Source: an uncultured Bacteroidia bacterium (lineage in GTDB: Bacteria; Bacteroidota; Bacteroidia; JAIBAJ01). From it: 64,000 nucleotides of DNA. Position 1 is the first letter of the stretch. The number at the start of each line of letters is the position of its first letter. The DNA lies in assembly GCA_965284645.1 (NCBI GenBank), contig OZ260106.1:342992-406991 (forward strand), written 5' to 3'. A model generated the notes under the pieces. The model was not told the DNA's origin, did not search any database, and worked only from the letters and a program-made list of their open reading frames with translations. Of this stretch, positions 4,588-64,000 are shown in pieces. A program made the translations under genes and the position numbers.

Positions 4588-4706
4588 GGTCAAATTATCG
4601 TCAAATATAGAAAAGTCAACGAAATAAAGCATAAGCCAAGATTATCTTTCCATAAATTTTTTATCGCCCCCAAATATTGTCTTATTTTGCAGAAAAGAAT
4701 CAAGCT

Positions 4707-23850: not shown

Positions 23851-23881
23851 CCCAAATTCATAGAACTCTGCTCAATTTTAT

Positions 23882-24046
23882 CCCAGATTACGCATTAGAA
23901 ATGCATAAAGGATTAACCAGTTGTAAATCAATTTGTATAGCCAAATTGACAACAACTGCTATCCCGAAATTTCTTCGGGAGGGGTAAACCCAACTAAATC
24001 AAGTAGTTCGGATTAATAAATCCTCCTATTGATTAATTTGGGTTTA
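23882..24046 (+). repeat. Family-2 AT-rich about 165-bp MITE-like repeat
   Basis: CCCAGATTACGCATTAGAAATGCATAAAGGATTAACCAGTTGTAAATCAATTTGTATAGCCAAATTGACAACAACTGCTATCCCGAAATTTCTTCGGGAGGGGTAAACCCAACTAAATCAAGTAGTTCGGATTAATAAATCCTCCTATTGATTAATTTGGGTT matches copies at 46012 and 52567 at above 95% identity. The termini are imperfect inverted repeats (AACCCAGATTA..CATTAG / CTATTGATTAATTTGGGTT). Confidence 0.85.
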
Positions 24047-26403: not shown

Positions 26404-26632
26404 GTCTTTAATTTTAAAAGGTTGACGATGCAAATGTGCAACGGTATTTCCAAATAAAAAGACTCTTTTGAACAATATCTTACGCATCCACAACCGCATT
26501 TTTAGAACATTTTTCTCTAATAATACCACAAATCAAGGATTTTAAATTCTCTACTTCTTACGCATAGTTTTATTTGAAAACTGCCGAAAACTTGAAATTA
26601 ACCCCTGATTTTCTGCAAAAACAAACACAATC

Positions 26633-40531: not shown

Positions 40532-41068
40532 ATGTTAAGCCCAACCACTCAATTACCTGAAATCATTTCCAACTCCATTCTCCTAATCCGCAATCAAAAG
40601 GTAATGTTGGATTCAGAACTAGCTAAACTTTATAGTGTACCAACCAAGCGCCTCAACGAACAAGTAAAAAGGAATTTGGAGCGTTTTCCAGAAGACTTTA
40701 TGTTTCAATTGTCTGAAAATGAATGGCAAAACTTGAGGTCGCAAAATGCGACTTCAAGTTTTGTTGAAACAGATTGGGGAGGGCGACGAACCTTGCCTTA
40801 CGCATTTACAGAACAAGGCATTTCCATGTTATCCTCTGTGTTGTCTAGTCCTACAGCTATTCAAGTGAATATTGCCATCATGCGGGTATTTGTCAATATT
40901 CGAAATTGGACATTAAATTATAAAGACCTCACCGATCAAATCCATGAAATCAATCAGCATCAGTTTGAACAGGACATGCAAATTCAACAAATTTATGAAA
41001 CGATTGATGCATTGATCAAACCTACCTATTCTGAGCGTAAACAAATTGGTTTTAAACGGGAAAGCTGA
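40532..41068 (+). CDS. ORF6N (KilA-N-like) domain protein
   Basis: 178 aa. ILLIRNQKVMLDSELAKLY.V.TKRLNEQVKRNLERFPEDFMFQLS..E......RRTLPYAFTEQGISMLSSVL matches the ORF6N/phage-antirepressor-like N-terminal domain common in Bacteroidetes. Confidence 0.75.
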   Translation: MLSPTTQLPEIISNSILLIRNQKVMLDSELAKLYSVPTKRLNEQVKRNLERFPEDFMFQLSENEWQNLRSQNATSSFVETDWGGRRTLPYAFTEQGISMLSSVLSSPTAIQVNIAIMRVFVNIRNWTLNYKDLTDQIHEINQHQFEQDMQIQQIYETIDALIKPTYSERKQIGFKRES

Positions 41069-41495: not shown

Positions 41496-41650
41496 ACCCA
41501 AATTAATCAATAGGAGGATTTAATAATCCGAACTACTTGATTTAGTTGGGTTTAACCCGATTTAGCAGTTGTTATCAATTTGGCCATACAAATTGATTTA
41601 CAACTGGTTAATCGTTTACTCATTTCTAATGCGTAATCTGGGATTAACCC
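41496..41650 (-). repeat. Family-2 AT-rich repeat (reverse orientation), first of a tandem pair
   Basis: AACCCAAATTAATCAATAGGAGGATTTAATAATCCGAACTACTTGATTTAGTTGGGTTTAACCCGATTTAGCAGTTGTTATCAATTTGGCCATACAAATTGATTTACAACTGGTTAATCGTTTACTCATTTCTAATGCGTAATCTGGG is the reverse complement of the family-2 consensus. It lacks the CCCGAAATTTCTTCGGG hairpin segment. Confidence 0.8.
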
Positions 41651-45934: not shown

Positions 45935-46017
45935 ACCCAGAATCCGCATTAGAATTGCCTAACGATTTTGTAGTTTGAAGTAGTAAATTCTTCTATTGTA
46001 AATTTTAGGTTGAACCC
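45935..46017 (+). repeat. Miniature (about 85-bp) relative of the family-2/3 repeats
   Basis: AACCCAGAATCCGCATTAGAATTGCCTAACGATTTTGTAGTTTGAAGTAGTAAATTCTTCTATTGTAAATTTTAGGTTGAACCC. The ends resemble the shared TIR (AACCCAGA-T-CGCATTAGAA / ..TTAGGTTGAACCC). It sits immediately before a full family-2 copy. Confidence 0.55.
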
Positions 46018-46182
46018 AGATTACGCATTAGAAATGCATAAACGATTAACCAGTTGTAAATCAATTTGTATGGCCAAATTGATAACAACTGCTATCCCGA
46101 AATTTCTTCGGGAGGGGTAAACCCAACTAAATCAAGTAGTTCGGATTAATAAATCCTCCTATTGATTAATTTGGGTTGAAAT
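46012..46182 (+). repeat. Family-2 AT-rich about 170-bp MITE-like repeat
   Basis: It is near-identical to 23882-24046 and 52567-52735 (AACCCAGATTACGCATTAGAAATGCATAAACGATTAACCAGTTGTAAATCAATTTGTATGGCCAAATTGATAACAACTGCTATCCCGAAATTTCTTCGGGAGGGGTAAACCC...CCTCCTATTGATTAATTTGGGTT). Confidence 0.9.
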
Positions 46183-48221: not shown

Positions 48222-48593
48222 GCAATAGGATTCCGAATGGCGAAAATACAAATTATACCGATGGTATTGGAGAAATAGTCCAATTGTCCATTTAGAGAAT
48301 TAGCCTTAAAATGGCCGATAGTACAAGGGTATAATACCAATTTTAATTTATAAATAGTCCAAAGGCTATTTGTAAATTTAGATTGGTAAATGCCGAGGAT
48401 ACAGTATGTTAGTCCAACTTTTTCTAAAAAATGTGAGCCTAAAATTGGACTGTACATAATGTCCATTCGGTATAATTTCATTTTTCAATAACAAATCATT
48501 GGATAAACTGGGTTTTCTCTTTTTGTGAATTCGGTAAAGAGAACGGTAAAAACGAATGGTTTGGTGCCAAAACTTAAAAATTGACATATTTTA

Positions 48594-48776
48594 ACCCAGA
48601 TTACGCATTAGAAATCGTAATGAAGCTTTCAAATGCAATAAAGACGAGGGTTTCAGGTTAATTTTTGGGTGAAGGAATAGTAAACTATTTTGAAGTCAAA
48701 AATTGTTCTGAAATCCTTGTATTTGAAGCAGTTGAAAGCTGTAATAGATTTCTAATGCTGAATTTGGGTTTAACCC
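48594..48776 (+). repeat. Family-3 AT-rich about 183-bp MITE-like repeat (same TIR as family 2, different interior)
   Basis: AACCCAGATTACGCATTAGAAATCGTAATGAAGCTTTCAAATGCAATAAAGACGAGGGTTTCAGGTTAATTTTTGGGTGAAGGAATAGTAAACTATTTTGAAGTCAAAAATTGTTCTGAAATCCTTGTATTTGAAGCAGTTGAAAGCTGTAATAGATTTCTAATGCTGAATTTGGGTTTAACCC. Shows a perfect-ish TIR ATTTCTAATGC. It is about 96% identical to 52272-52455. Confidence 0.9.
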
Positions 48777-50702: not shown

Positions 50703-52100
50703 TTGCTTATGCGCCTACTTTTAATTGCTTCCCTTTGTTTTTGTTTCGAAACGGTTTTTTCCCAGGTTTACGATTCGCAAAATGTAAATCTGTTGGGGCA
50801 TTGGGACGATTCCACGGTTGTTCCTGAACCCCAGCTGGGTATTCGTTACAATGGCTGTTTTGGCTGGGAAAACCCCAACGATGGCCGCCGCTATGCCATC
50901 ATAGGCTCCTCTCGCTCCACCCATGTTATCGAGGTTACCAACCCCAATCAGCCTGTTTTTCGTTGGGAAATAATTGGTTCCCGCATCAATTGCATTTGGC
51001 GCGAAATCAAAACCTTTGGCAAATATGTGTATATCGTTAGCGACGATGGCTATCCCAACCGCTTTCAAATTGCCGATTTAAGCTATTTACCCGATTCGGT
51101 TCATTTGGTAATGGATTCGGATAGCATTTTCGCCCGCACCCATACCATTTTCATTGATGGCAACAAACTTTACTGCGCCAGTGTACATTCAGCTGGGCAA
51201 AATGGTAGCTATTCGGCCATGAATGTGTATTCCTTGGCCAATCCCGAAAAACCACTTTTGCTGCGCCGTTTGGATCAAGACTATCAATCTATCAGCCAAG
51301 TCCACGATATGTGGGTACGCAACGACACCATTTTTGCTTCCTCTGCTTATCAAGGCCTAAGTATACTCACTTTTGATACAATTCAAAACAGGTTCAACCT
51401 AGTCTCTACCCTAACCGTTTACGACAATGCGGGCTACAACCACAGCAGCACTTGGTCGAAAGATGGAAAAACCCTGGTAATGATGGACGAGGTTCCGAAT
51501 AGTTTGCCTGCCAAGGTGGTCAATGTGTCGGATATCACTCAACCCTACGTTACCGCCTATTTTAACAGTTCCGATTCTACTACACCCCACAACCCTTATT
51601 TCATTGGCGATTCGAAAATTTTTGTAGGCGCACACTACGAAGATGGCACCCAGATTTACGATGTATCCAACGAAAACAATCCGGTTCGTCTCGGCTATTT
51701 CGATACACATTGGCAAACCACGCCCGCAACTAATACAGGCGATTACCGCGGCAATTGGGGTTCCTATGTGGATTTCGGTGGCGGATTGGTTATCTCCGGC
51801 GATATGCAAAACGGCCTGTTTGTCCTGGATATTAGTCCCAGTTTAACCGGTATCGAACAGCGCATTCCCCAGCAGGCAAAGGTGTGGCCCCTCCCTTCCA
51901 AATCCCTGGTTTTCATTGATCCGGTATTGGCACAAACCTGCACAACTTGGACCTTGGAAAATACGTTCGGACAGGTGGTTAAATCGGGACAATTTATTAG
52001 CAATCAAGGACTTACTATTCAAGAATTGGCCAGTGGATTTTATCATCTATCTATTCGCACGGCTAGTCAAGAGTACGTTCTGAAGGTGGTCAAAGAATAG
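50703..52100 (+). CDS. Choice-of-anchor-B (LVIVD-repeat beta-propeller-like) protein with T9SS C-terminal sorting domain
   Basis: 465 aa. Has a signal peptide and the N-terminal YDSQNVNLLGHWDD... plus repeated beta-propeller-like blades. The C-terminal about 80 aa (VWPLPSKSLVFIDPVL....GFYHLSIRTASQEYVLKVVKE) is T9SS CTD-like. Confidence 0.65.
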   Translation: MLMRLLLIASLCFCFETVFSQVYDSQNVNLLGHWDDSTVVPEPQLGIRYNGCFGWENPNDGRRYAIIGSSRSTHVIEVTNPNQPVFRWEIIGSRINCIWREIKTFGKYVYIVSDDGYPNRFQIADLSYLPDSVHLVMDSDSIFARTHTIFIDGNKLYCASVHSAGQNGSYSAMNVYSLANPEKPLLLRRLDQDYQSISQVHDMWVRNDTIFASSAYQGLSILTFDTIQNRFNLVSTLTVYDNAGYNHSSTWSKDGKTLVMMDEVPNSLPAKVVNVSDITQPYVTAYFNSSDSTTPHNPYFIGDSKIFVGAHYEDGTQIYDVSNENNPVRLGYFDTHWQTTPATNTGDYRGNWGSYVDFGGGLVISGDMQNGLFVLDISPSLTGIEQRIPQQAKVWPLPSKSLVFIDPVLAQTCTTWTLENTFGQVVKSGQFISNQGLTIQELASGFYHLSIRTASQEYVLKVVKE

Positions 52101-52270
52101 TTTATTTTGGCGGGCCCCCAACCGCAAATACCGCTTCCTACGTCTATTATAGTTGGTGCATGGCGGTTGGGTCAGGCTTTCGGCGCTAGTCCTCGGTCTG
52201 CTCCGTTCCTCCGCATCCCTGTGGGCTAGACTGCCTCTATCCTTGCCCGAAGGCCTCCGTGCCCGGCTTT
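52101..52270 (+). repeat. Family-1 GC-rich repeat, short copy F (about 170 bp)
   Basis: TTTTGGCGGGCCCCCAACCGCAAATACCGC...GGCGGTTGGGTCAGGCTTTCGGCGCTAGTCCTCGGTCTGCTCCGTTCCTCCGCATCCCTGTGGGCTAGACTGCCTCTATCCTTGCCCGAAGGCC... It starts exactly at the stop of the upstream gene and is the reverse complement of copy A's right arm. Confidence 0.85.
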
Positions 52271-52271
52271 T

Positions 52272-52455
52272 AACCCAGATTACGCATTAGAAATCGTAAT
52301 GAAGCTTTCAAATGCAATAAAGACGAGGGTTTCAGGTTAATTTTTGGGTGAAGGAATAGTAAACTATTTTGAATGCAAAAATTGTTTTTAAATCCTTGTA
52401 TTTGAAGCAGTTGGAAGCTGTAATAGATTTCTAATGCTGAATCTGGGTTTAACGG
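52272..52455 (+). repeat. Family-3 AT-rich repeat
   Basis: AACCCAGATTACGCATTAGAAATCGTAATGAAGC...ATTTCTAATGCTGAATCTGGGTTTAAC. It is a near-identical copy of 48594-48776 and directly abuts family-1 copy F. Confidence 0.9.
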
Positions 52456-52527
52456 TATATTGAGCAGGTGCTTTCCATGTCCGGTTGTAGAATAATTTTT
52501 TCCTATACCCTAAATAAATCAGCTAGG

Positions 52528-52570
52528 AAAAATTGAATAATCCGAACTACTTGAATGGCTTGGTTTAAAC
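52528..52570 (-). repeat. Fragment of a family-2 repeat (reverse orientation)
   Basis: AATAATCCGAACTACTTGA...GGTTTAAACCC is the reverse complement of the TCAAGTAGTTCGGATTATT segment of family 2. It joins the next full copy at AAACCC. Confidence 0.45.
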
Positions 52571-52735
52571 CCAAATTAAGCATTAGAAATGCATAAACGA
52601 TTAACCAGTTGTAAATCAATTTGTATGGCCAAATTGATAACAACTGCTATCCCGAAATTTCTTCGGGAGGGGTAAACCCAACTAAATCAAGTAGTTCGGA
52701 TTAATAAATCCTCCTATTGATTAATTTGGGTTAAA
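52567..52735 (+). repeat. Family-2 AT-rich repeat, ending inside or at the stop codon of the giant adhesin gene
   Basis: AACCCAAATTAAGCATTAGAAATGCATAAACGATTAACCAGTTGTAAATCAATTTGTATGGCCAAATTGATAACAACTGCTATCCCGAAATTTCTTCGGGAGGGGTAAACCC...CCTCCTATTGATTAATTTGGGTTAAAG. The element's last bases overlap the TAA of the 52731..>64000 gene. Confidence 0.9.
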
Positions 52736-55700
52736 GCACCGTAACTGTACCAGAGACTGTTTTGGTGTTACCATTGGGGAATTTCACTTCAATTTGGTAC
52801 ACATACATATCTGATTTAAGTGTCCCTTTGTAGGTACCATCCCATCCTGTTTCAATATCGTCGCTTACAAAGATTTGCTCGCCCCAACGTGTGAAGATAC
52901 GCATATAAAACCGTTTTAATCCCTCTGGTGCATAAGCTTTAAACACATCGTTTGTACCATCGTTGTTGGGCGAAATAGCGTTGGGAACCCATATAGCATT
53001 GTCGATTAGGCGCACAAATACGGTATCATAGGCTTCACAGCCATTGCTGTCAATAACGGTGAGGATAATTTCCGATTCTTCCCTAATTTGACCGGTAATA
53101 CTGGCGCAGGTATCGCATTCGTTCAAAGTCTCTGGATACCAATGGTAAGTATAACCTGGCGTTCCACCACTGCCAAATCCATCAATTTCAAACTCCTCCA
53201 TAGGTAAAATATCGTTTTCAGATTGAATTTCGGCGGTAACCTGGGTCGGCTGTTGAATGGTTGTAGCCAGCGATAATTCACAACCATTGCTATCCACCAC
53301 AGTAACCGCATAAAGACCAGCGCTTAAGTTAGAAATGGAATCGCCCATCAAGCCATTGCTCCAAAGAATAGCGTATGGTTCGGTGCCTCCGCGAAGGGTA
53401 ATACCAATTGCTCCGTCGCTGTAGCCGAAGCATGAAACATCGCGATAAGATAAAGTTCCAAGCAATTCGTTGGGTTGGGTAAGCTCAAAGCTCTCGGAAG
53501 CAGTGCAGGCTTGAGCATCTGTAATTAGCACAGTAAAGGTTCCAGCGGGCACTCCCGAAATAGAACTGGTGGTGCTTCCTGAATTCCATTGGTAAGTATA
53601 GGGCCCTGTACCACCCGTCACTGTAACAGAGGCCATACCATCTGCCAATCCAAAACAAGAAATGTTGCTTGAATCACTACTCAACTCTAATGCAGTTGGC
53701 TGGTTGATAGTTGCGCTGCCTGTTACGGTGCATCCATTGGCATCGGTAAGCTCGATAGCATATGTTCCTGCGATAAGGTTGGTTACATCCTCCGTATTCG
53801 CTCCCGACGACCAAACAAAACTATAAGGTAAACTTCCGCCTTGTGCTGTGATATCAATGCTTCCATCCGAAAGACCAAAACAACTAACATCCACCACAGT
53901 TAAAGCGTTAATGGCTAATAATGGAGGTTCTGTTATATCTAATCCTTGAATAGTGGAACATCCGTTGGCATCCGATACAGTCACATCATAATGGCCTTGC
54001 GCTAGATCGTTTCGAGAGGCTGCAACAGTACCATCGGCCCAAACAAATTGGTAAGCGGGGGTTCCTCCACTGGCCGAAAGGGTAGCTGACCCATCGGATA
54101 GTCCGAAACAACTAACCGCTGTAGTGGCATCCAAAGCAGACTGCAATGGACTTGGCTCTGCAATTGTTCCAGCTATCGTAGTAGTACAACCTTTAGAATC
54201 GGTAATATTAGCGGTATAATTGCCTTGTGGTAAGTTCGACTCGGTTAACCCGGCATTCCCACTTGGCCAAAGAATCGTATAGGCAGGTGTACCTCCGGTT
54301 ATGTCGATAGTTAAACTACCATCCGAACCTCCATTACAAGTAACATCGCTCGATGCAACCAAACTAGCCGATAAAACCGTTGGTTCTAAAATTGTTGCTT
54401 GATCCGAGGCTGTGCAACCCATATTATCCGTAGCAGTGACATCAATTGGTCCTGCTGGCAATTGTGTTGTGTTTGCACCCGTACCTGCATTACTCCAAGC
54501 ATAGCTAACAGGAGCTGTTCCTCCTTGGGCTAAGGCATCTGCCGTACCATCATTACCTCCAAAACATGATACATCTGTTGTGGAGGTAATGGATACTACA
54601 AATAAGGAAGGCTCAGCGATGGTGGCCACAGCAGAGGCTGTACATCCGTTGGCATCCGTAATGGTGGCTGTATAAATTCCTGCTGCTAAGTTTTGAGCCT
54701 GCTGAAGCAAATCGCCGTTGGTCCAGCTATATGAATAAGGTTGTGTTCCTCCGTTTCCAGAAACCTGTGCACTTCCATCTGTATAGCCAAAACAAGAAGC
54801 ATCCACCGTATTGGTAATGGTAGCCGTCAATTGAGACGGTTCATTAATCAAAGCAGTAGCCGTGGCGGTACAACCTAGTGCATCTGTAACCGTAATATCA
54901 TAACTTCCAACCAAAAGGTTAGCAGCATTGTCTAATGCATCCCCATTGGTCCACAAATAAGTATATACAGGCGTACCTCCCGAAGCAAGGGCCGAGGCAG
55001 TTCCATTGTTGCCACCAAAGCAGGAAACATCGGTGGTGCTGGTAATAAGCACATTTAACTGGGTAGGCTCGGTAATAGTAGCAGTAGTGGAAACTGTGCA
55101 TCCGTTGAGGTCAACTAAAGTAGAGGTGTAAGTTCCGGCTGAAAGATTGGTGGCTGTTGGCGCATTGGTTTGGCCATTGGTCCAGGTATTGGTATATGGC
55201 GGAGTTCCACCTGAAGCCGTCGTTGTAGCCGTGCCATCACTTCCTCCAAAACAAGATACATTAGTGGTAGATGCAACAGAATGTAGCAATAAAGTAGGTT
55301 CGGTAATAGTGGCATTAGCTGTGGATGTACAGCCGTTTCCGTCGGTCGCTGTAACTGTATAATTTCCTGCAACCAAGTTATTTATTGTAATCGCATTGGA
55401 TCCGCCTGTCCATAGATATGTTACACCAGCCACTCCTCCAGTAATTGAAGCGGTAGCGCTACCATCACTTCCACCAAAGCAAGACACATTGGTAATTGTT
55501 GGAATAGTGGCAACAAATAAGGCTGGTTGATTTATTGTAGCGGTTGCAGTTGTTACACAAGCATTGGCATCTGTTATGGTGGCGGTGTAGGAGCCAGCCA
55601 AAAGGTTGCTGGTTTGGGCTGTTTGATCACCATTTGACCAGCTAAAGGTGTAAGGAGCTGTTCCTCCTCCTCCGGCAACTGTGGCATCTCCATCAGCATA

Positions 55701-58700
55701 GCCAAAACAAGATACATCCGTGGTAGCCGTGATAGTAGCAGTAAGCTGGGTAGGTTGGGTAATAGTAGTAGTGGCCGTAGCGGTACAACCCTTGCTATCG
55801 GTAGCGGTAACGGTAAAACTAGTGGCCGTTAGGTTAGTAGCGGTGGCTGTGTTGTTGCCATTGGTCCAGCTGTAGGTGTAAGGTGCAGTGCCTCCCGCAG
55901 CCAAAGCTGTTGCGGTTCCATCATTGCCACCAAAGCAAGATACGTTGGTGGTAGTGGGAATGCTAACCGATAATTGGCTTGGTTCGGTAATAGTTGCCGT
56001 GGCGGTAGCGGTGCAACCATTGGCATCGGTAACGGTAGCAGTGAAACTACCCGCAGTAAGCAAACTGGCATTGGCGGTGGTATTGCCATTGGTCCAGGAA
56101 TAGGTATAGCCCGGTGTTCCACCCGCTGCTGCAACCGTTGCTGTTCCATCGTTGCCACCCAAACAAGAGACATCGGTAGTGGCTGAAATGGTAGCGGTCA
56201 ATAATGTGGGTTCGGTAATCGTGGTATTGGCTGTAGCGGTGCAACCATTGCCATCGGTAGCGGTTACGGTATAAGTTCCAGCAGTGAGGTTATTGGCTGT
56301 TATGGTATTGGCGCCACTTGTCCAGACATAGCTTACACCTGCTACTCCGCCAGTAACTGATGCAGTAGCACTACCATCACCTCCACCAAAGCAAGACACA
56401 TTGGTAATTGTTGGAATAGAGGCAACCAATAAGGCCGGTTGATTTATTGTAGCGGTTGCAGTTGTTACACAAGCATTGGCATCTGTTATGGTGGCGGTGT
56501 AGGCGCCAGCCAAAAGGTTGCTGGTTTGGGCTGTTTGATCACCATTTGACCAGCTAAAGGTGTAAGGAGCTGTTCCTCCGCCTCCGGCAACTGTGGCATC
56601 TCCATCAGCATAGCCAAAACAAGAAACATCCGTGGTAGCCGTAATTGTAGCAGTAAGTTGGGTAGGTTGGGTAATAGTAGTGGTGGCCGTAGCGGTGCAA
56701 CCCTTGCTATCTGTAGCGGTAACGGTAAAGCTAGTGGCCGTTAGGTTGGTAGCGGTGGCTGTGTTGTTGCCGTTGGTCCAGCTGTAGGTGTAAGGTGCAG
56801 TGCCTCCCGCAGCCAAAGCTGTTGCGGTTCCATCATTGCCACCAAAGCAAGATACGTTGGTGGTAGTGGGAATGCTAACCGATAATTGGCTTGGTTCGGT
56901 AATAGTTGCCGTGGCGGTAGCGGTGCAACCATTGGCATCGGTAACGGTAGCAGTGAAACTACCCGCAGTAAGCAAACTGGCATTGGCGGTGGTATTGCCA
57001 TTGGTCCAGGAATAGGTATAGCCCGGTGTTCCACCCGCTGCTGTAACCGTTGCAGTTCCATCGTTGCCACCCAAACAAGAGACATCGGTAGTGGCTGAAA
57101 TGGTAGCGGTCAATAATGTGGGTTCGGTAATCGTGGTATTGGCTGTAGCTGTGCAACCGTTGCCATCGGTAGCGGTTACGGTATAAGTTCCGGCAGTGAG
57201 GTTATTGGCTGTTATGGTATTGGCGCCACTTGTCCAGACATAGCTTACACCTGCTACTCCGCCAGTAACTGATGCAGTAGTACTACCATCACTTCCACCA
57301 AAGCAAGACACATTGGTAATTGTTGGAATAGAGGCAACCAATAAGGCCGGTTGATTTATTGTAGCGGTTGCAGTTGTTACACAAGCATTGGCATCTGTTA
57401 TGGTGGCGGTGTAGGCGCCAGCCAAAAGGTTGCTGGTTTGGGCTGTTTGATCACCATTTGACCAGCTAAAGGCGTAAGGAGCTGTTCCTCCTCCTCCGGC
57501 AACTGTGGCATCTCCATCAGCATAGCCAAAACAAGATACATCCGTGGTAGCCGTGATAGTAGCAGTAAGTTGGGTAGGTTGGGTAATAGTAGTAGTGGCC
57601 GTAGCGGTACAACCCTTGCTATCGGTAGCGGTAACGGTAAAACTAGTGGCCGTTAGGTTGGTAGCGGTGGCTGTGTTGTTGCCATTGGTCCAGCTGTAGG
57701 TGTAAGGTGCAGTGCCTCCCGCAGCCAAAGCTGTTGCGGTTCCATCATTGCCACCAAAGCAAGATACGTTGGTGGTAGTGGGAATGCTAACCGATAATTG
57801 GCTTGGTTCGGTAATAGTTGCCGTGGCGGTAGCGGTGCAACCATTGGCATCGGTAACGGTAGCAGTGAAACTACCCGCAGTAAGCAAACTGGCATTGGCG
57901 GTGGTATTGCCATTGGTCCAGGAATAGGTATAGCCCGGTGTTCCGCCCGCTGCTGTAACCGTTGCAGTTCCATCGTTGCCACCCAAACAAGATACGTTGG
58001 TAGTGGCTGAAATGGTAGCGGTCAATAATGTGGGTTCGGTAATCGTGGTATTGGCCGTAGCGGTGCAACCGTTGCCATCGGTAGCGGTTACGGTATAAGT
58101 TCCGGCAGTGAGGTTATTGGCTGTTATGGTATTGGCGCCACTTGTCCAGGCATAGGTAACACCCGCTACTCCGCCAGTTACAGAGGCAGTAGCACTACCA
58201 TTGTTTCCACCGAAACAGGATACATTGGTGGTGGTGGGTATGCTGGCAACAAATAAAGCCGGTTGATTGATGGTAGCTGTTGCTGTGGCGGTGCAGCCTT
58301 TGGCATCAGTTACCGTGGCCGTAAAGGTACCAGCCGCCAAATTGCTAGCCTGGGCCGTGTTGTTTCCATTGGTCCAGCTATACGTGTAAGGAGCTGTTCC
58401 TCCGCCTCCGGCTACTGTGGCATCTCCATCAGCATAGCCAAAACAAGAAACATCCGTGGTAGCCGTAATTGTAGCAGTAAGTTGGGTAGGTTCGGTAATA
58501 GTAGTAGTGGCAGTAGCGGTGCAACCCTTGCTATCCGTAGCGGTAACGGTAAAGCTAGTGGCCGTTAGGTTGGTAGCAGTGGCTGTGTTGTTGCCATTGG
58601 TCCAGCTGTAGGTGTAAGGTGCAGTGCCTCCTGCAGCCAAAGCTGTGGCGGTTCCATCATTGCCACCAAAGCAAGATACGTTGGTGGTAGTGGGAATGCT

Positions 58701-61700
58701 AACCGATAATTGGCTTGGTTCGGTAATAGTTGCCGTGGCGGTAGCAGTGCAACCATTGGCATCGGTAACGGTAGCAGTGAAACTACCCGCAGTAAGCAGA
58801 CTGGCATTGGCGGTGGTATTGCCATTGGTCCAGGAATAGGTATAGCCCGGTGTTCCGCCCGCTGCTGCAACCGTTGCAGTTCCATCGTTGCCACCCAAAC
58901 AAGATACGTTGGTAGTGGCTGAAATGGTAGCGGTCAATAATGTCGGTTCGGTAATCGTGGTATTGGCCGTAGCGGTGCAACCGTTGCCATCGGTAGCGGT
59001 TACGGTATAAGTTCCGGCAGTGAGGTTATTAGCTGTTATGGTATTGGCGCCACTTGTCCAGACATAGCTTACACCTGCTACTCCGCCAGTTACAGAGGCA
59101 GTAGCACTACCATTGTTTCCACCGAAACAGGATACATTGGTGGTGGTGGGTATGCTGGCAACAAATAAGGCCGGTTGATTGATGGTAGCTGTTGCAGTTG
59201 CGGTGCAGCCTTTGGCATCAGTTACCGTGGCCGTAAAGGTACCAGCCGCCAAATTGCTAGCCTGGGCCGTGTTGTTTCCATTGGTCCAGCTAAAAGTGTA
59301 AGGAGCTGTTCCTCCGCCTCCGGCTACTGTGGCATCTCCATCAGCATAGCCAAAACAAGAAACATCCGTGGTAGCTGTGATGGTAGCTGTAAGCTGGGTA
59401 GGTTGGGTAATAGTAGTAGTGGCCGTAGCGGTACAACCCTTGCTATCGGTAGCGGTAACGGTAAAGCTAGTGGCCGTTAGGTTGGTAGCGGTGGCTGTGT
59501 TGTTGCCATTGGTCCAGCTGTAGGTGTAAGGTGCAGTGCCTCCCGCAGCCAAAGCTGTGGCAGTTCCATCATTGCCACCCAAGCAAGACACATTGGTGGT
59601 AGTGGGAATGCTAACCGTTAATTGGGTAGGTTGGGTAATAGTTGCCGTGGCGGTAGCGGTGCAACCATTGGCATCGGTTACCGTGGCAGTGAAATTACCC
59701 GCAGTAAGCAGACTGGCATTGGCGGTGGTATTGCCATTTGTCCAGGAATAGGTATAGCCCGGTGTTCCACCCGCTGCTGCAACCGTTGCTGTTCCATCGT
59801 TGCCACCCAAACAAGAGACATCGGTAGTGGCTGAAATGGTAGCGGTCAATAATGTGGGTTCGGTAATCGTGGTATTGGCTGTAGCGGTGCAACCATTGCC
59901 ATCGGTAGCGGTTACGGTATAAGTTCCGGCAGTGAGGTTATTGGCTGTTATGGTATTGGCGCCACTTGTCCAAACATAGCTAACACCCGCTACTCCCCCA
60001 GTTACAGATGCAGTAGCACTACCATTGTTTCCACCGAAACAGGATACATTGGTGGTGGTGGGTATGCTGGCAACAAATAAAGCCGGTTGATTGATGGTAG
60101 CTGTTGCAGTTGCGGTGCAGCCTTTGGCATCAGTTACCGTGGCCGTAAAGGTACCAGCCGCCAAATTGCTAGCCTGGGCCGTGTTGTTTCCATTGGTCCA
60201 GCTAAAAGTGTAAGGAGCTGTTCCTCCTCCTCCGGCAACTGTGGCATCTCCATCAGCATAGCCAAAACAAGATACATCCGTGGTAGCCGTGATAGTAGCA
60301 GTAAGCTGGGTAGGTTCGGTAATAGTAGTAGTGGCCGTAGCGGTACAACCCTTGCTATCGGTAGCGGTAACGGTAAAGCTAGTGGCCGTTAGGTTGGTAG
60401 CGGTGGCTGTGTTGTTGCCATTGGTCCAGCTGTAGGTGTAAGGTGCAGTGCCTCCCGCAGCCAAAGCTGTGGCAGTTCCATCATTGCCACCCAAGCAAGA
60501 CACATTGGTGGTAGTGGGAATGCTAACCGTTAATTGGGTAGGTTGGGTAATAGTTGCCGTGGCGGTAGCGGTGCAACCATTGGCATCGGTTACCGTGGCA
60601 GTGAAATTACCCGCAGTAAGCAGACTGGCATTGGCGGTGGTATTGCCATTTGTCCAGGAATAAGTGTAGCCCGGTGTTCCACCCGCTGCTGTAACCGCTG
60701 CTGTTCCATCGTTGCCACCCAAACAAGATACGTTGGTGGTGGCTGAAATGGTAGCGGTCAATAATGTGGGTTCGGTAATCGTGGTATTGGCTGTAGCTGT
60801 GCAACCGTTGCCATCGGTAGCGGTTACGGTATAAGTTCCGGCAGTGAGGTTATTGGCTGTTATGGTATTGGCGCCACTTGTCCAGACATAGCTTACACCC
60901 GCTACTCCGCCAATAACTGAGGCAGTAGCACTACCATTGTTTCCACCGAAGCAGGATACATTGGTGGTGGTGGGTATGCTGGCAACAAATAAGGCCGGTT
61001 GATTGATCGTAGCTGTTGCAGTTGCAGTGCAGCCTTTGGCATCAGTTACCGTGGCCGTAAAGGTACCAGCCGCCAAATTGCTAGCCTGGGCCGTGTTGTT
61101 TCCATTGGTCCAGCTATACGTGTAAGGAGCTGTTCCTCCTCCTCCGGCAACTGTGGCATCTCCATCAGCATAGCCAAAACAAGATACATCCGTGGTAGCC
61201 GTGATAGTAGCAGTAAGCTGGGTAGGTTGGGTAATAGTAGCAGTGGCAGTAGCGGTACAACCTTTGCTATCGGTAGCGGTAACGGTAAAGCTAGTGGCCG
61301 TTAGGTTGGTAGCGGTGGCTGTGTTGTTGCCATTGGTCCAGCTGTAGGTGTAAGGTGCAGTGCCTCCCGCAGCCAAAGCTGTGGCGGTTCCATCATTGCC
61401 ACCCAAGCAAGACACGTTGGTGGTAGTGGGAATGCTAACCGTTAATTGGGTTGGTTGGGTAATAGTTGCCGTGGCGGTAGCGGTACAACCATTGGCATCG
61501 GTAACGGTAGCAGTGAAATTACCCGCAGTAAGCAGACTGGCATTGGCGGTGTTATTGCCATTGGTCCAGGAATAGGTATAGCCCGGTGTTCCGCCTGCTG
61601 CTGTTACCGTTGCAGTTCCATCGTTGCCACCCAAACAAGATACGTTGGTAGTGGCTGAAATAGTAGCGGTCAATAATGTGGGTTCGGTAATCGTGGTATT

Positions 61701-64000
61701 GGCAGTAGCGGTGCAACCGTTGCCATCGGTAGCGGTTACGGTAAAATTGCCTTGGGTGAGTCCGGTACCAAGCGCGGCATTTCCTCCAAGGCTTGACCAA
61801 GAGTAGGAATAATTGGGTGTTCCGCCAGTGGCTAATGCGGTGGCTGTACCATCATTTCCGCCATTGCATGAAACATTGGTTGTTCCAGTTATGGAAACGG
61901 AAAGGGCTGTAGGTTGCGAAACCGAAGCTGTAGCAGTTGCGGAACAGCCATTGGCATCATTCACTTGGACGGTATAACTACCTGCACTTAATCCAGTTGC
62001 AGCAGCCGTATTGGAGCTATTTCCTTGCCAAATGTAAGTGTAACCAGGGGTGCCACCCGTTGCGGTAACGTTCATAGTTCCATTGGCTCCGCCATTGCAG
62101 CTTACTGGTGTTGTAGCAGTTGTCAGGCTTACCGAAGTGGGTTGATTAATAAAGACATTTCTTGTAATTTGGCAATTGTTTCCATCAGTAATGGTGCAGG
62201 TATAATTTCCCGTACATAAAGATGAAGCAGTAGCATTGTTACCTCCGGAGGGAGACCAAGCATAGGAATAAGCGGTTGTTCCTCCGCTCGGAGTTACGGT
62301 GGCGGTTCCATTGCAAAGTCCATTGCAGGTTGCATCCGTGAGGCTAGTTACTGCGGTTAAGGCTGTAGGTTGGGTGATGGTAACAGACCGAGTAATATTG
62401 CAATTGTTTGCATCTGTAATGGTACAGGTATACGTACCATTGCCTAAATTACTTGCTGTGGCCAAATTTCCTCCACTTGGCGACCATGCATACGTATAAT
62501 TGGGGGTTCCACCAGTTGCAGTAACCGTTGCAGTGCCATTTGTTCCGCCATTGCAAGAAACATTGGTTTGCCCAGTGGTAGCCGAAAGAGCCGAAGGTTC
62601 GGTTATGGTGAAATTGCTGGTGGTTGAACATCCCGGACCAGTTGAAATGGTGCAGACGTAATTACCAGGGCAGAGTCCTGTGGCTGTAGCATTGGAGCCA
62701 CCCGAAGGCGACCAAGCATAGGTGTATGAACCGCTACCTCCGCTTGGAGTAACCGTAGCCGTTCCATTGCAAGCTCCATTGCAGCTAACATTGGTAAAAC
62801 TTTGTGTGGCCGAAATTGCTGTTGGTTGGGTGATGGTAACCGAAGCCGTATTCGAGCATCCATTTGAAGCAGTTGCTGTTACCGTATAAGTTCCGGCTGT
62901 AAGGTTTGTGGCTGTTTGAGTAGTTTGTCCACCGGGACTCCATGAATAGGTATAGGGGCCTGGTTGACCAGATGGATTCGCTGTGGCGGAGCCATTGTTT
63001 CCTCCGAAGCAAGTCACATTGGTTTGGGTGGTGGCTACCGTTAAGCTAGCAGATGCATTGGGAATTACCGTAGAAGATTGAACAGGAACCGTACATGACA
63101 ATTGGTCATTTACAACCACAGTATAAGAAACTCCTGGACAAAGGTTGGAAATGGTTTGTGTAGTTTGGCCATTGCTCCAATTGTAGTTGTATGGAGGCAA
63201 ACCGCCGGTTGGGTTGGCAGTTGCCGTTCCCGTGCAACCACAAAGTGGGGCTGTTACAGAGGTGGTTACTGCAAGTGGGTTAGAACATTGAATGAAATCA
63301 ATAAAAACCCCGGAATCATAAGCCCAGTCGTATGAATCAGCGATAGCAATCTTAAAATGGTAGGTGGCACAAGGACAAAGTGTAACCGTTCTGGTAAGGG
63401 CGGTTGTTAGTCCATCGTATTGCAAACCTGAAGCACCGGCCACATAGTAAGCACTGTTGTTATTGGCATTAACGTTATCAATGGTTACCGTTGTGGTATT
63501 GTTGGGAAGGGTTGCCACATTGGTATTGTTGTAGGCCGCACCACCACAATTTGGACCTGGTCCGGTAATAAAGAAACCAAAGGCATCATTGTAGTTTGAG
63601 CTTACATATTCTGGGTATTCATCTGATCCAAAGATGAAACGAATTTGCAAGGAATTACATTGAGGCGTGATATCGAACTCAATGATACAGACATCATTTT
63701 TGGCCCTACTATCGATGGCGAGGAGTTGGGGATCGTTATAAATTGTACCAAAACCAGCCGAAATCCCTGAAGAACTATTGGGGCCAATGGCATTGGTGGC
63801 AAAACCAGTTGTTAGTAAAATACCATTGCTCATGGCCAACCCTCCACCACTGTTGGTAAAGGTACCATAAGCAGCAGCGTTGCAATTGATTGTGAGGTTA
63901 TTAACAGTAAGACCTTGTCCTGCAAAAGAAGAAATAAGTTGAGCAGGAGTAGACCCCGCACTAACAACAAGTTGGGCTTTACCAGAAAAATGAACCAACG
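52731..64000 (-). CDS. Giant SprB-like cell-surface adhesin (5'-truncated by window end): choice-of-anchor-L-like N-region, about 40 SprB repeats, type-B T9SS (gliding-motility-associated) C-terminal domain
   Basis: More than 3755 aa are in the window, and the ORF is still open at 63998. About 76-aa repeats carry the SprB-repeat signature C.G..DG.A......GG...Y.Y.W.NG........L.AG.Y..TVTD.NGC.......I..P repeated throughout. The C-terminus ..WVPNAISPNNDGTNDVFKAYAPEGLKRFYMRIFTRWGEQIF....GWDGTYKG..... matches the type-B (CHU_C / TIGR04131-like) T9SS CTD. The most N-terminal part seen (DEYPEYVSSNYNDAFGFFITGPG..) resembles a choice-of-anchor-L domain. Confidence 0.85.
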   Translation of the reverse strand, partial: LVHFSGKAQLVVSAGSTPAQLISSFAGQGLTVNNLTINCNAAAYGTFTNSGGGLAMSNGILLTTGFATNAIGPNSSSGISAGFGTIYNDPQLLAIDSRAKNDVCIIEFDITPQCNSLQIRFIFGSDEYPEYVSSNYNDAFGFFITGPGPNCGGAAYNNTNVATLPNNTTTVTIDNVNANNNSAYYVAGASGLQYDGLTTALTRTVTLCPCATYHFKIAIADSYDWAYDSGVFIDFIQCSNPLAVTTSVTAPLCGCTGTATANPTGGLPPYNYNWSNGQTTQTISNLCPGVSYTVVVNDQLSCTVPVQSSTVIPNASASLTVATTQTNVTCFGGNNGSATANPSGQPGPYTYSWSPGGQTTQTATNLTAGTYTVTATASNGCSNTASVTITQPTAISATQSFTNVSCNGACNGTATVTPSGGSGSYTYAWSPSGGSNATATGLCPGNYVCTISTGPGCSTTSNFTITEPSALSATTGQTNVSCNGGTNGTATVTATGGTPNYTYAWSPSGGNLATASNLGNGTYTCTITDANNCNITRSVTITQPTALTAVTSLTDATCNGLCNGTATVTPSGGTTAYSYAWSPSGGNNATASSLCTGNYTCTITDGNNCQITRNVFINQPTSVSLTTATTPVSCNGGANGTMNVTATGGTPGYTYIWQGNSSNTAAATGLSAGSYTVQVNDANGCSATATASVSQPTALSVSITGTTNVSCNGGNDGTATALATGGTPNYSYSWSSLGGNAALGTGLTQGNFTVTATDGNGCTATANTTITEPTLLTATISATTNVSCLGGNDGTATVTAAGGTPGYTYSWTNGNNTANASLLTAGNFTATVTDANGCTATATATITQPTQLTVSIPTTTNVSCLGGNDGTATALAAGGTAPYTYSWTNGNNTATATNLTATSFTVTATDSKGCTATATATITQPTQLTATITATTDVSCFGYADGDATVAGGGGTAPYTYSWTNGNNTAQASNLAAGTFTATVTDAKGCTATATATINQPALFVASIPTTTNVSCFGGNNGSATASVIGGVAGVSYVWTSGANTITANNLTAGTYTVTATDGNGCTATANTTITEPTLLTATISATTNVSCLGGNDGTAAVTAAGGTPGYTYSWTNGNTTANASLLTAGNFTATVTDANGCTATATATITQPTQLTVSIPTTTNVSCLGGNDGTATALAAGGTAPYTYSWTNGNNTATATNLTATSFTVTATDSKGCTATATTTITEPTQLTATITATTDVSCFGYADGDATVAGGGGTAPYTFSWTNGNNTAQASNLAAGTFTATVTDAKGCTATATATINQPALFVASIPTTTNVSCFGGNNGSATASVTGGVAGVSYVWTSGANTITANNLTAGTYTVTATDGNGCTATANTTITEPTLLTATISATTDVSCLGGNDGTATVAAAGGTPGYTYSWTNGNTTANASLLTAGNFTATVTDANGCTATATATITQPTQLTVSIPTTTNVSCLGGNDGTATALAAGGTAPYTYSWTNGNNTATATNLTATSFTVTATDSKGCTATATTTITQPTQLTATITATTDVSCFGYADGDATVAGGGGTAPYTFSWTNGNNTAQASNLAAGTFTATVTDAKGCTATATATINQPALFVASIPTTTNVSCFGGNNGSATASVTGGVAGVSYVWTSGANTITANNLTAGTYTVTATDGNGCTATANTTITEPTLLTATISATTNVSCLGGNDGTATVAAAGGTPGYTYSWTNGNTTANASLLTAGSFTATVTDANGCTATATATITEPSQLSVSIPTTTNVSCFGGNDGTATALAAGGTAPYTYSWTNGNNTATATNLTATSFTVTATDSKGCTATATTTITEPTQLTATITATTDVSCFGYADGDATVAGGGGTAPYTYSWTNGNNTAQASNLAAGTFTATVTDAKGCTATATATINQPALFVASIPTTTNVSCFGGNNGSATASVTGGVAGVTYAWTSGANTITANNLTAGTYTVTATDGNGCTATANTTITEPTLLTATISATTNVSCLGGNDGTATVTAAGGTPGYTYSWTNGNTTANASLLTAGSFTATVTDANGCTATATATITEPSQLSVSIPTTTNVSCFGGNDGTATALAAGGTAPYTYSWTNGNNTATATNLTATSFTVTATDSKGCTATATTTITQPTQLTATITATTDVSCFGYADGDATVAGGGGTAPYAFSWSNGDQTAQTSNLLAGAYTATITDANACVTTATATINQPALLVASIPTITNVSCFGGSDGSTTASVTGGVAGVSYVWTSGANTITANNLTAGTYTVTATDGNGCTATANTTITEPTLLTATISATTDVSCLGGNDGTATVTAAGGTPGYTYSWTNGNTTANASLLTAGSFTATVTDANGCTATATATITEPSQLSVSIPTTTNVSCFGGNDGTATALAAGGTAPYTYSWTNGNNTATATNLTATSFTVTATDSKGCTATATTTITQPTQLTATITATTDVSCFGYADGDATVAGGGGTAPYTFSWSNGDQTAQTSNLLAGAYTATITDANACVTTATATINQPALLVASIPTITNVSCFGGGDGSATASVTGGVAGVSYVWTSGANTITANNLTAGTYTVTATDGNGCTATANTTITEPTLLTATISATTDVSCLGGNDGTATVAAAGGTPGYTYSWTNGNTTANASLLTAGSFTATVTDANGCTATATATITEPSQLSVSIPTTTNVSCFGGNDGTATALAAGGTAPYTYSWTNGNNTATATNLTATSFTVTATDSKGCTATATTTITQPTQLTATITATTDVSCFGYADGDATVAGGGGTAPYTFSWSNGDQTAQTSNLLAGSYTATITDANACVTTATATINQPALFVATIPTITNVSCFGGSDGSATASITGGVAGVTYLWTGGSNAITINNLVAGNYTVTATDGNGCTSTANATITEPTLLLHSVASTTNVSCFGGSDGTATTTASGGTPPYTNTWTNGQTNAPTATNLSAGTYTSTLVDLNGCTVSTTATITEPTQLNVLITSTTDVSCFGGNNGTASALASGGTPVYTYLWTNGDALDNAANLLVGSYDITVTDALGCTATATALINEPSQLTATITNTVDASCFGYTDGSAQVSGNGGTQPYSYSWTNGDLLQQAQNLAAGIYTATITDANGCTASAVATIAEPSLFVVSITSTTDVSCFGGNDGTADALAQGGTAPVSYAWSNAGTGANTTQLPAGPIDVTATDNMGCTASDQATILEPTVLSASLVASSDVTCNGGSDGSLTIDITGGTPAYTILWPSGNAGLTESNLPQGNYTANITDSKGCTTTIAGTIAEPSPLQSALDATTAVSCFGLSDGSATLSASGGTPAYQFVWADGTVAASRNDLAQGHYDVTVSDANGCSTIQGLDITEPPLLAINALTVVDVSCFGLSDGSIDITAQGGSLPYSFVWSSGANTEDVTNLIAGTYAIELTDANGCTVTGSATINQPTALELSSDSSNISCFGLADGMASVTVTGGTGPYTYQWNSGSTTSSISGVPAGTFTVLITDAQACTASESFELTQPNELLGTLSYRDVSCFGYSDGAIGITLRGGTEPYAILWSNGLMGDSISNLSAGLYAVTVVDSNGCELSLATTIQQPTQVTAEIQSENDILPMEEFEIDGFGSGGTPGYTYHWYPETLNECDTCASITGQIREESEIILTVIDSNGCEAYDTVFVRLIDNAIWVPNAISPNNDGTNDVFKAYAPEGLKRFYMRIFTRWGEQIFVSDDIETGWDGTYKGTLKSDMYVYQIEVKFPNGNTKTVSGTVTVL
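53900..61810. repeat. Intragenic tandem array of a 912-bp unit (= 4 SprB repeats, 304 aa), with about 6.5 near-identical copies at 55800-61810 and more diverged copies at 53900-55800
   Basis: Antisense-frame ORFs recur at exactly 912-bp spacing with near-identical translations. The 71-aa ORFs are at 55888, 56800, 57712, 58624, 59536, 60448 and 61360, the 65-aa ORFs at 56047, 56959, 57871, 58783, 59695 and 60607, and the 101-aa ORFs at 58263, 59175, 60087 and 60999. In the sense protein the 304-aa block ..TITEPTLLTATISATT[N/D]VSCLGGNDGTATV.AAGGTPGYTYSWTNGN.. occurs 7 times. Confidence 0.9.

Follow-up and report, generated by a model that had tools for sequence, protein, structure and literature searches.

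A seven-unit tandem array of a 912-bp, four-module repeat in a giant SprB-repeat protein gene of an uncultured Bacteroidia bacterium

The giant gliding-motility adhesin SprB of Flavobacterium johnsoniae, a T9SS type B substrate encoded in the sprCDBF operon, consists mostly of PF13573 repeats, ends in a TIGR04131/CHU_C domain and is predicted to form a string of Ig-like domains; it is about 150 nm long for 6497 aa. The grappling hook protein GhpA of Aureispira, 240 nm long for 5898 aa, also belongs to the giant T9SS substrates. It is heptameric and has a stem of uniform-length Ig-like repeats behind an N-terminal hook of about 1400 aa, and ghpA is accompanied downstream by PorP/PorE genes. In adhesins such as SiiE, Bap/Esp, SasG/Aap and alpha C/Rib, in-frame tandem repeats of high identity encode Ig-like or similar spacer domains; recombination alters the number of repeats, and the reach depends on the length. 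In a gliding-motility-associated protein of the Bacteroidota with a long internal tandem array, that of Flavobacterium psychrophilum, isolates differ in the number of repeats, from 35 to 88; this array inflates short-read coverage, and the counts were resolved by hybrid long-read assembly (PMC8400371).

The locus described here lies in a stretch of 64,000 nt from an uncultured Bacteroidia bacterium, referred to as the window. It contains an ORF of 3755 aa plus stop codon whose frame is unbroken over 11.3 kb (Table 1). The frame stays open up to the final base of the window, the 5' end of the ORF lying outside, and the sole visible part of a possible signal peptide is its tail, LVHFSGKAQ. The ORF product carries a choice-of-anchor L domain on the N-terminal side, followed by 44 SprB-repeat modules, and ends in a T9SS type B C-terminal domain (CTD). 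Pfam PF13573 (SprB repeat) scores 1467.7 bits (cut-off 28) and matches 44 stretches, one per 76-aa module, and the Cys-x-Gly anchors of the modules are spaced 75-77 aa apart. At the C-terminus TIGR04131 scores 43.9 bits (cut-off 35, E 2e-11, aa 3671-3751, the protein ending at aa 3755) and PF13585 (CHU_C) 54.6 bits (cut-off 27, E 1.2e-14). The protein belongs to the SprB-repeat proteins and, by its terminal TIGR04131/CHU_C domain, to the T9SS type B substrates, which bears out the first-pass annotation in naming a giant SprB-repeat surface protein as the host of the array. The domain families and the predicted fold suggest a location at the cell surface and a role as a stalk.

Table 1. Features of the adhesin locus and its tandem array (positions in the window)
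Feature	Position	Strand	Remarks
Giant ORF (choice-of-anchor L + 44 SprB modules + T9SS type B CTD)	52731..63998	-	3755 aa + stop
Choice-of-anchor L domain	63297..63941	-	aa 20-234, NCBIfam NF038133, E 1.3e-57
Diverged N-terminal SprB modules	61767..63251	-	aa ~250-744, ~54% nt identity to array units, no four-module register
Seven-unit array	55383..61766	-	aa 745-2872, 28 modules, A-B-C-D x7, indel-free
Subgroup I, U0-U3	58119..61766	-	94.3-97.4% nt identity within; type I 198-nt block (e.g. 60018-60215 in U1)
Subgroup II, U4-U6	55383..58118	-	95.4-98.0% nt identity within; 87.8-91.0% to subgroup I
U0	60855-61766	-	
U1	59943-60854	-	
U2	59031-59942	-	
U3	58119-59030	-	
U4	57207-58118	-	
U5	56295-57206	-	
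U6	55383-56294	-	
Type II block in U4-U6	57282-57479, 56370-56567, 55458-55655	-	~73% identical to type I
U7, diverged eighth copy of the four-module unit	54468..55382	-	aa 2873-3177, one extra residue
Diverged C-terminal SprB modules	53199..54467	-	aa 3178-~3600, ~50% nt identity to array units
T9SS type B sorting domain (CHU_C / TIGR04131)	52740..52988	-	aa 3671-3753
Non-coding spacer downstream of adhesin gene	52101..52730	.	630 bp, two hairpin-forming interspersed repeat elements

The likeness to SprB that had been proposed extends to the type of repeat and to the sorting domain only. The F. johnsoniae protein is 6497 aa long, whereas the adhesin found here has at least 3755 aa and carries an N-terminal choice-of-anchor L domain. 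An SprB orthologue would be identified by sequence orthology together with linkage to sprC, sprD and sprF. In contrast to the sprCDBF operon, no sprF lies downstream here, and no sprC or sprD is visible in the window, the upstream region lying outside it. The downstream spacer contains no sprF/porP-like ORF, and a scan of 32 large ORFs in the window gave no match to a PorP/SprF family. A consensus scan detected no intrinsic terminator downstream of the gene, and Rfam at gathering thresholds gave no match in the window. The next gene past the spacer (50703-52100, plus strand) is convergent and encodes a choice-of-anchor B / type A CTD protein. A downstream porP/sprF-like shuttle gene is common but not universal, being found for 9 of the 12 type B substrates in F. 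johnsoniae (PMC12618676). Since no such gene is present directly downstream, the adhesin resembles the 'orphan' type B substrates (PMC12618676).

The 912-bp period noticed at first reading stands far above chance. Self-identity in the gene region peaks at lag 912, with 0.665 over a background of about 0.25-0.3, 200-nt sliding windows at this lag are 0.93-1.00 identical between about 55500 and 60750, and an independent repeat-finding program returned 7 copies, all six start-to-start spacings being 912. The equation of 304 aa with four SprB modules is likewise correct, with one Pfam SprB repeat per 76-aa module. Throughout the array the module anchors follow one another at intervals of exactly 76 aa, so it is free of indels. 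The copy number must be raised from about 6.5 to 7.0 units (U0-U6), and the span at 80% identity or more is 55405-61764. Pairwise nucleotide identity among the units is 87.8-98.0%, with 153 of 912 sites variable. Their description as near-identical with only scattered substitutions was therefore overstated, also since about 50 differences are clustered in a block of 200 nt. Neighbouring units are the closest (U4/U5 98.0%, U1/U2 97.4%). Modules of the same type are 83-100% identical in amino acid sequence across units, and types A, B, C and D are 53-75% identical to one another; these head-to-tail units of constant length are thus much more alike than their internal modules and form a higher-order tandem repeat. 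Antisense ORFs of 51, 70, 71 and 101 aa do recur at 912-bp spacing, as had been reported, and their recurrence is a mechanical by-product of the repeat. They are short, start with GTG or TTG and are present only as repeat copies, and we reject them as genes.

The clustered differences parting U0-U3 from U4-U6 occupy unit nt 640-837 (198 nt, 27% divergence). Between the subgroups this block has a Ks above 1, and the remainder of the unit a Ks of about 0.1-0.2. A search within the adhesin gene for a donor of the block gave nothing above 73% identity. The progressive divergence ascribed to both flanks is seen on the C-terminal (low-coordinate) side only, where U7 has 64-66% nt identity to the array (its modules being 71, 61, 62 and 58% identical in amino acid sequence to A, B, C and D) and U8 about 50%. 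On the N-terminal, high-coordinate side the boundary is sharp: identity falls abruptly to about 54% and the A-B-C-D register is absent.

Codon position 3 accounts for 102 of the 153 variable sites, and comparison of the units gives Ka values of 0.006-0.075 and Ks values of 0.06-0.39, with Ka/Ks around 0.1-0.2. Purifying selection appears to have kept every module intact. The four-gamete test was failed by 103 of 171 site-pattern pairs among units, a PHI-like statistic was 0.174 against 0.290 +/- 0.012 after permutation (0 of 5000 permutations, p<0.0002), and the Hudson-Kaplan Rm was at least 13. These mosaic patterns are the signature of exchange and therefore support past exchange between units. 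The view that long direct repeats are recombination substrates also finds support, in that exact tracts of up to 345 bp are shared, 27 of at least 50 bp between adjacent units. Such exact tracts are adequate substrates for homologous recombination.

In view of the above, we consider it likely that the array arose by in-register amplification followed by exchange, under purifying selection and with slow turnover. A pre-existing block of four modules would have been amplified in register within the lineage, U7 being an old, diverged copy of this block. Unequal homologous recombination may have produced the two unit subfamilies, which later gene conversion would have patched into mosaics, and purifying selection would have kept the modules intact throughout. 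As each unit encodes four modules, the seven units would provide 28 of the 44 beads of a rod that holds the choice-of-anchor-L head off the cell. Further in-register crossovers would keep the frame, since 912 = 3 x 304 and the exact tracts join adjacent units, and they would add or remove 304 aa, which corresponds to about 7-12 nm of stalk per unit when scaled from the lengths of GhpA and SprB. Because of the synonymous divergence of the units, changes in unit number would take hold only over evolutionary time, among strains or species, and not as a frequent cell-to-cell switch.

The predicted structure bears on what kind of stalk this could be. An AlphaFold2 model of one unit (pLDDT 93) is all-beta with four domains, and the fold predicted for each 76-aa module is an Ig-like beta-sandwich. 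In a Foldseek search with this model the top PDB matches were Ig-like stalk fragments of GhpA (9flw, 9flp and 9fls; E 3e-9 to 1e-7, probability 1.00, TM(query) 0.46-0.48, 20-24% identity in the structural alignment). SiiE, itself an Ig-like repeat adhesin, Hoc and other Ig strings followed lower down. A sequence search of the PDB did not find GhpA; its only matches were weak ones, with E 0.0015, to a decoration protein of a phage. SiiE, Bap/Esp, SasG/Aap and alpha C/Rib belong to other secretion systems and domain families, and their period is a single domain, whereas here it is a super-unit of four.

With GhpA fragments as the best solved structural matches, the protein might form a multimeric appendage that is rigid and has a fixed length instead of being a flexible SprB-type motility adhesin, the array being a length-setting stalk under stabilising selection. 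GhpA, too, combines Ig-like repeats with a specialised head at the N-terminus in a giant substrate of the T9SS, and its stem of uniform-length Ig-like repeats has a counterpart in the adhesin; the two conserved Cys per SprB module could form disulfides, and selection on length would agree with the slow turnover of the array. We nevertheless hold this to be unlikely. The identity to GhpA is only 20-24% and escaped the sequence search, in place of a 1400-aa hook the head consists of a 215-aa choice-of-anchor L domain, with SprB modules directly behind it, and PorP/PorE genes are missing downstream, unlike at ghpA. A further proposal, that the 304-aa unit is a structural quantum because only multiples of four modules keep inter-domain or inter-protomer register in a multimeric GhpA-like stalk, seems highly improbable. 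If true, the array would be a discrete length ruler with steps of about 7-12 nm that tunes the reach of a T9SS appendage. A four-module period was also considered as a general rule of SprB repeats: since 21 other proteins with chains of at least 10 modules differ in period (2, 3, 4 or 7) and most have none, a universal four-module quantum is unsupported.

Comparison with other sequences places the amplification of the array within this lineage, as far as can be judged from the sampled relatives. No orthologue of the adhesin was found in a collection of 5.8 billion proteins, where identity reached at most 56% for the N-terminal and 46% for the C-terminal query; the best matches to both parts are MAG proteins. 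A scan of genome contigs with the N-terminus gave a best match of 54%, on a contig that stops 2 kb into the gene, and a metagenome scan with one array unit gave at best 57% amino acid identity among the matches listed. Relatives with 88-90% identical BshC (JGI sample 3300059473; ENA ERZ27272050) are present as contigs of 3.8-9.6 kb that end short of the adhesin locus; one of them was used, for Ks calibration only. Arrays of comparable make-up do occur elsewhere. Tandem stretches of at least 85% identity were found in 29 of 157 other SprB-repeat loci, where the same module of 225-231 nt is amplified at high identity as in the array described here, with periods of 1, 2, 3, 4 and 7 modules. In Flavobacterium orientale (L054) at least 15 copies of a 228-nt unit are 96-100% identical, and a metagenome locus (L144) has a 912-nt, four-module period with about 3 copies at ~83%; further amplified metagenome loci are L100, L119/L109, L140 and L141. 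The array in the window (6.4 kb) is the longest of high identity among the 157 loci sampled, which are cut at flank limits or contig ends.

The timescale of turnover separates slow amplification from a fast contingency locus, in which RecA-mediated unequal crossover would change the unit number at high frequency and so give different adhesin lengths in one population; this is the stronger form of the first-pass interpretation. The in-frame units, the exact tracts between neighbours and the between-unit exchange recorded in the mosaic patterns would all suit such a locus, as would the strain-level variation of repeat number in a related protein class (PMC8400371), although the F. psychrophilum unit is a short motif counted in tens and the present one a 304-aa, four-domain unit present seven times at 88-98% identity. 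Yet frequent expansion and contraction homogenises arrays, and here even the closest pair of units is 18 differences apart, each unit has 2-19 private substitutions, and 9-12% divergence separates the subgroups. The F. orientale array shows what a truly homogenised SprB array looks like. Sequence divergence of 2-12% moreover lowers homologous recombination. Ks is at least 0.06 for every pair of units and 0.1-0.39 for most, and because even the closest units differ to this extent, turnover of the array looks slow. For comparison, bshC has a Ks of 0.86 to the nearest sampled relative, far above that of the array units; this argument assumes similar synonymous rates in the array and bshC and leaves aside stabilising selection on length, which could remove frequent variants. 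A fast contingency locus is thus distinctly unlikely. Routine cell-to-cell variation in unit number is not supported by the sequence, while variation between strains or species is plausible.

The warning that the array is an assembly hazard is justified for short k-mers, as 20% of the 127-mers and 15% of the 150-mers in the array are non-unique. PMC6868369 reviews this problem in general. Many database homologues of the adhesin are 'partial' and end at contig ends. The copy number itself is resolvable, because each of the seven units can be told apart and exact repeats reach no more than 345 bp, and no sign of an artefact was seen. An array expanded, collapsed or mis-ordered in assembly, with a different true copy number, is very improbable even though repeats of this kind break short-read assemblies and many homologues are truncated, since every unit carries private sites, reads or read pairs longer than about 350 bp resolve the array, the intact frame and third-position bias are expected of real coding copies rather than of consensus errors, and the variants are arranged in an ordered gradient across the units.

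The array is an ordinary feature of such adhesins, and similar arrays exist in other SprB-repeat genes. Repeat-driven length variation of surface adhesins is already well established, also in the Bacteroidota, and the locus opens no new question in this respect. Its value for annotation is that it can be read as 76-aa modules, a four-module super-unit and seven resolvable units, and short-read assemblies of relatives will break at the array. It offers a clean example of a T9SS stalk that probably underwent lineage-specific amplification and was then patched by gene conversion while purifying selection acted. Through the Ig-like model, which is of high confidence, the SprB repeats would be tied to GhpA, the only solved T9SS filament.

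Within the gene region, self-identity peaks at 0.665 for a lag of 912 nt; multiples of 912 rank second and a 228-nt sub-period third. In 200-nt windows the lag-912 identity stays at 0.93-1.00 from about 55500 to 60750. Seven copies with a start-to-start spacing of exactly 912 were returned by a separate repeat search, and Tandem Repeats Finder, run at periods up to 500, detected the 228-nt sub-period alone, in 27 copies with 64% matches. The 912-nt array is real and far beyond chance, as the first-pass annotation had claimed, with seven in-register units (U0-U6, numbered from the N- to the C-terminal side) instead of the approximately 6.5 given there; its span of at least 80% identity is 55405-61764. 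The true structural period is 76 amino acids, each module containing two conserved cysteines and a single Pfam SprB match of 37 aa, and four module types (A-D) form one unit. That the units are free of indels follows from the conserved Cys-x-Gly anchors, which are spaced exactly 76 residues apart throughout the array. Modules inside one unit are 53-75% identical whereas modules of the same type reach 83-100% across units, which by definition makes the array a higher-order repeat.

Features of the adhesin gene, its surroundings and two comparison loci (window coordinates unless an accession or aa is given)
Feature	Position	Strand	Remarks
Giant ORF	52731-63998	minus	3755 codons, contains array
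Array U0-U6	55383-61766	minus	aa 745-2872, seven in-register units
Choice-of-anchor L domain	aa 20-234	minus	NCBIfam
CHU_C type IX secretion signal domain	aa 3671-3753	minus	Pfam
Choice-of-anchor B protein	50703-52100	plus	type A sorting domain, convergent with adhesin gene
PKD-repeat protein	24127-26529	minus	type A sorting domain
Metallophosphatase	2893-4632	minus	Por_Secre_tail match below gathering score
1160-aa ORF	5794-9276	minus	second repetitive gene in window
Two adjoining ORFs	10444-11424, 11421-12827	minus	4-nt overlap, both match MMPL/RND transporter family
IS200-like Y1 transposase match	16037-16639	plus	weak, E 9e-6
ORF6N-domain protein	40532-41068	plus	domain match
Core-bearing repeat elements	23880-23902, 41622-41644, 46013-46035, 48593-48770, 52272-52449, 52568-52725		motif search
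L054, Flavobacterium orientale NZ_BMFG01000010.1	9741-13253		at least 15 copies of 228-nt module, 96-100%, reaching contig end
L144, Ga0247727_10000064	9617-12330		independent 912-nt four-module unit, about 3 copies, about 83%

The description of the units as near-identical did not hold, since any two units are 87.8-98.0% identical in nucleotide sequence (18 to 111 differences in 912 nt, 153 variable sites). They form two contiguous subgroups, U0-U3 (94-97% within) and U4-U6 (95-98% within), with 88-91% between them. About 50 of the between-subgroup differences are packed into one 198-nt block (unit nt 640-837), where the subgroups are about 73% identical with Ks >1, against Ks of about 0.1-0.2 in the remainder of the unit. 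Plus-strand antisense ORFs of 51, 70, 71 and 101 aa do reappear every 912 bp, a correct but trivial remark; the variable block overlaps the 101-aa one, which is therefore confined to U0-U3. Progressive divergence of the flanks was borne out on the C-terminal, low-coordinate side, where in gapped alignments the next unit-lengths, U7 and U8, are 64-66% and about 50% identical to the array units, and the U7 modules keep a weak A-B-C-D order (71, 61, 62 and 58% aa identity to A, B, C and D). On the N-terminal side identity falls immediately to about 54% and register is absent.

Third codon positions account for 102 of the 153 variable sites. Between units Ka is 0.006-0.075 and Ks 0.06-0.39 (Nei-Gojobori), a Ka/Ks of about 0.1-0.2; as protein, each copy has evolved under purifying selection. 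The most similar units are neighbours (U4/U5, U1/U2), a pattern that stepwise in-register duplication would leave. The variants are also mosaic: 19 different patterns occur at the 86 informative sites, and the four-gamete test is failed by 103 of the 171 pattern pairs. Neighbouring sites are incompatible significantly less often than in 5000 permutations (PHI-like statistic 0.174 versus 0.290 +/- 0.012), and at least 13 recombination events are needed by the Hudson-Kaplan criterion, of which 12 fall outside the divergent block. A donor for this block was not found elsewhere in the adhesin gene (best match about 73%). A paralogue in another part of the genome could have supplied it, or it could be an old difference that was spared when the rest of the unit was later homogenised; on either view, repeats must have exchanged sequence. 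Unequal crossover or gene conversion between units in the past is thus well supported, in keeping with the concerted evolution proposed earlier.

The pace of such exchange is a separate matter. Between adjacent units, 27 tracts of 50 bp or more match exactly, the longest over 345 bp, and homologous recombination on tracts of this kind makes gain or loss of units mechanistically possible, in frame because the period is a multiple of three. Frequent expansion and contraction, however, leads to a homogeneous array. Here the closest pair of units is still 18 differences apart (Ks 0.06) and all seven units carry private substitutions (2-19 each), with the subgroups differing by 9-12%. The array of Flavobacterium orientale is truly homogenised, at 96-100% over at least 15 modules, in contrast to the 88-98% seen here. 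In our reading even the closest units have not exchanged sequence recently, although stabilising selection on stalk length could also lie behind the observed pattern of unit divergence. The length change driven by recombination that the first-pass annotation proposed is reasonable on evolutionary timescales, and differences in unit number between strains or species would be likely; for differences between cells the proposal was probably too strong, and routine cell-to-cell length polymorphism is not supported. The only direct precedent found for strain variation is a gliding-motility-associated protein of Flavobacterium psychrophilum, with 35-88 repeat units among isolates in hybrid long-read assemblies (PMC8400371).

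The warning of an assembly hazard was fair in general, as many adhesin homologues are annotated "partial" or stop at contig edges, and 20% of 127-mers and 15% of 150-mers in the array are non-unique. No sign of an artefact in copy number was seen in this array. No exact repeat exceeds 345 nt, each unit can be told from the others, the reading frame is unbroken over 11.3 kb, and the substitutions are third-position-biased and ordered along the array.

Exact look-up of three neighbouring proteins gave no match, and protein searches gave no relative above 56% identity for the N-terminal 370 aa of the adhesin or above 46% for its C-terminal 426 aa. For the whole unit nothing was closer than 57% among the metagenome matches listed, and species-representative genomes reached 54% at most. 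The bshC gene and its orthologue in the closest relative sampled (88% aa identity) differ by Ks 0.86. Our reading would place both the building and the patching of the array later than the split from this relative. The gene order bshC-hisK-ORF6N-ABC is also present on a relative's metagenome contig (BshC 88% identical).

The giant ORF contains 44 SprB repeats (Pfam, 1468 bits) and a TIGR04131 type B sorting domain (NCBIfam). Its frame is open up to the last base of the window, so that a few N-terminal residues are missing, probably most of the signal peptide. An AlphaFold2 model of U1, for which the alignment input consisted of 40 overlapping four-module segments of the same protein, is all-beta with strands in four domains (mean pLDDT 93). 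Foldseek placed three cryo-EM fragments of the Ig-like stalk of GhpA on top among PDB entries (E 3e-9 to 1e-7), followed by SiiE, phage Hoc and eukaryotic Ig-domain strings. GhpA is a T9SS substrate, the grappling-hook protein of Aureispira, in which 5898 aa with a stem of 52 Ig-like repeats form a 240-nm appendage, and its resemblance to SprB has been remarked (bioRxiv 10.1101/2024.01.29.577165). From the domain content, the U1 model and the GhpA matches, the array can be read as 28 of the 44 beads of a rod-like stalk that would run from an N-terminal head to the outer-membrane anchor. Scaled from GhpA (240 nm/5898 aa) and from SprB, which is reportedly about 150 nm for 6497 aa, each unit would span roughly 7-12 nm and the whole array 50-90 nm.

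The product is a member of the SprB-repeat proteins and of the type B substrates, and this membership does not make it an orthologue of the motility adhesin SprB. Of the 12 type B substrate genes in F. johnsoniae, 9 have a porP/sprF-like shuttle gene directly downstream; the remaining three, called "orphans", rely on a shuttle that is not linked to them (PMC12618676). Here none follows: no ORF of at least 60 aa was found in the 630 bp after the stop codon, beyond which lies the convergent choice-of-anchor B gene, and the PorP/SprF family had no match among the 32 larger window ORFs scanned against Pfam. This makes the adhesin look like an orphan among type B substrates, provided that no partner is encoded upstream beyond the window.

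The remaining window is ordinary Bacteroidota chromosome, with BshC, peptidases, an ABC transporter and several type A T9SS cargo proteins. The 1160-aa ORF, for which no Pfam or NCBIfam family matched, has about 300 central residues of Ala/Glu/Lys-rich tandem repeats (AEAKAKAEAEAKAK...EEEKRLAAE) and, after them, a long charged stretch that resembles a coiled coil; the ORF causes the strong AT skew of -0.545 at 6001-8000. The adjoining MMPL/RND ORFs represent either one transporter gene, split or frameshifted, or a transporter that is truly encoded in two parts. An intergenic repeat family with the common core AACCCAGATTACGCATTAGAAAT is interspersed (8 motif matches versus 0 expected). Type 1 elements (about 180 nt) have terminal inverted repeats, the copies at 48593 and 52272 being near-identical; one copy of type 2 (about 160 nt) begins directly past the adhesin stop codon. 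Both fold as long hairpins (z -6.1 and -8.8), no Rfam family matched them in the window, and they look like MITE or REP-like elements.

Among 157 other SprB-repeat loci, scanned at lags of 150-4000 nt for self-identity of at least 85% over 300 nt or more, 29 have a high-identity tandem stretch. Their periods correspond to one module (228, 225, 231 nt), two (453-474 nt), three (684 nt) or more, including four-module periods of 912 nt (L144), 900 (L119 and L109), 918 (L141) and 927 (L140). In 21 other proteins with chains of at least 10 modules the module-lag peak is at 2, 3, 4 or 7, or there is none. Amplification of module blocks is therefore a recurring trait of SprB-repeat proteins, and a period of four modules is not shared by all of them. 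The present array is the longest high-identity example in the sample, whose loci are cut off by flank limits and contig ends. Our verdict is that it arose by lineage-specific amplification, was reshaped by gene conversion and is kept under purifying selection, and that it makes up most of the predicted stalk of an orphan type B T9SS surface protein.
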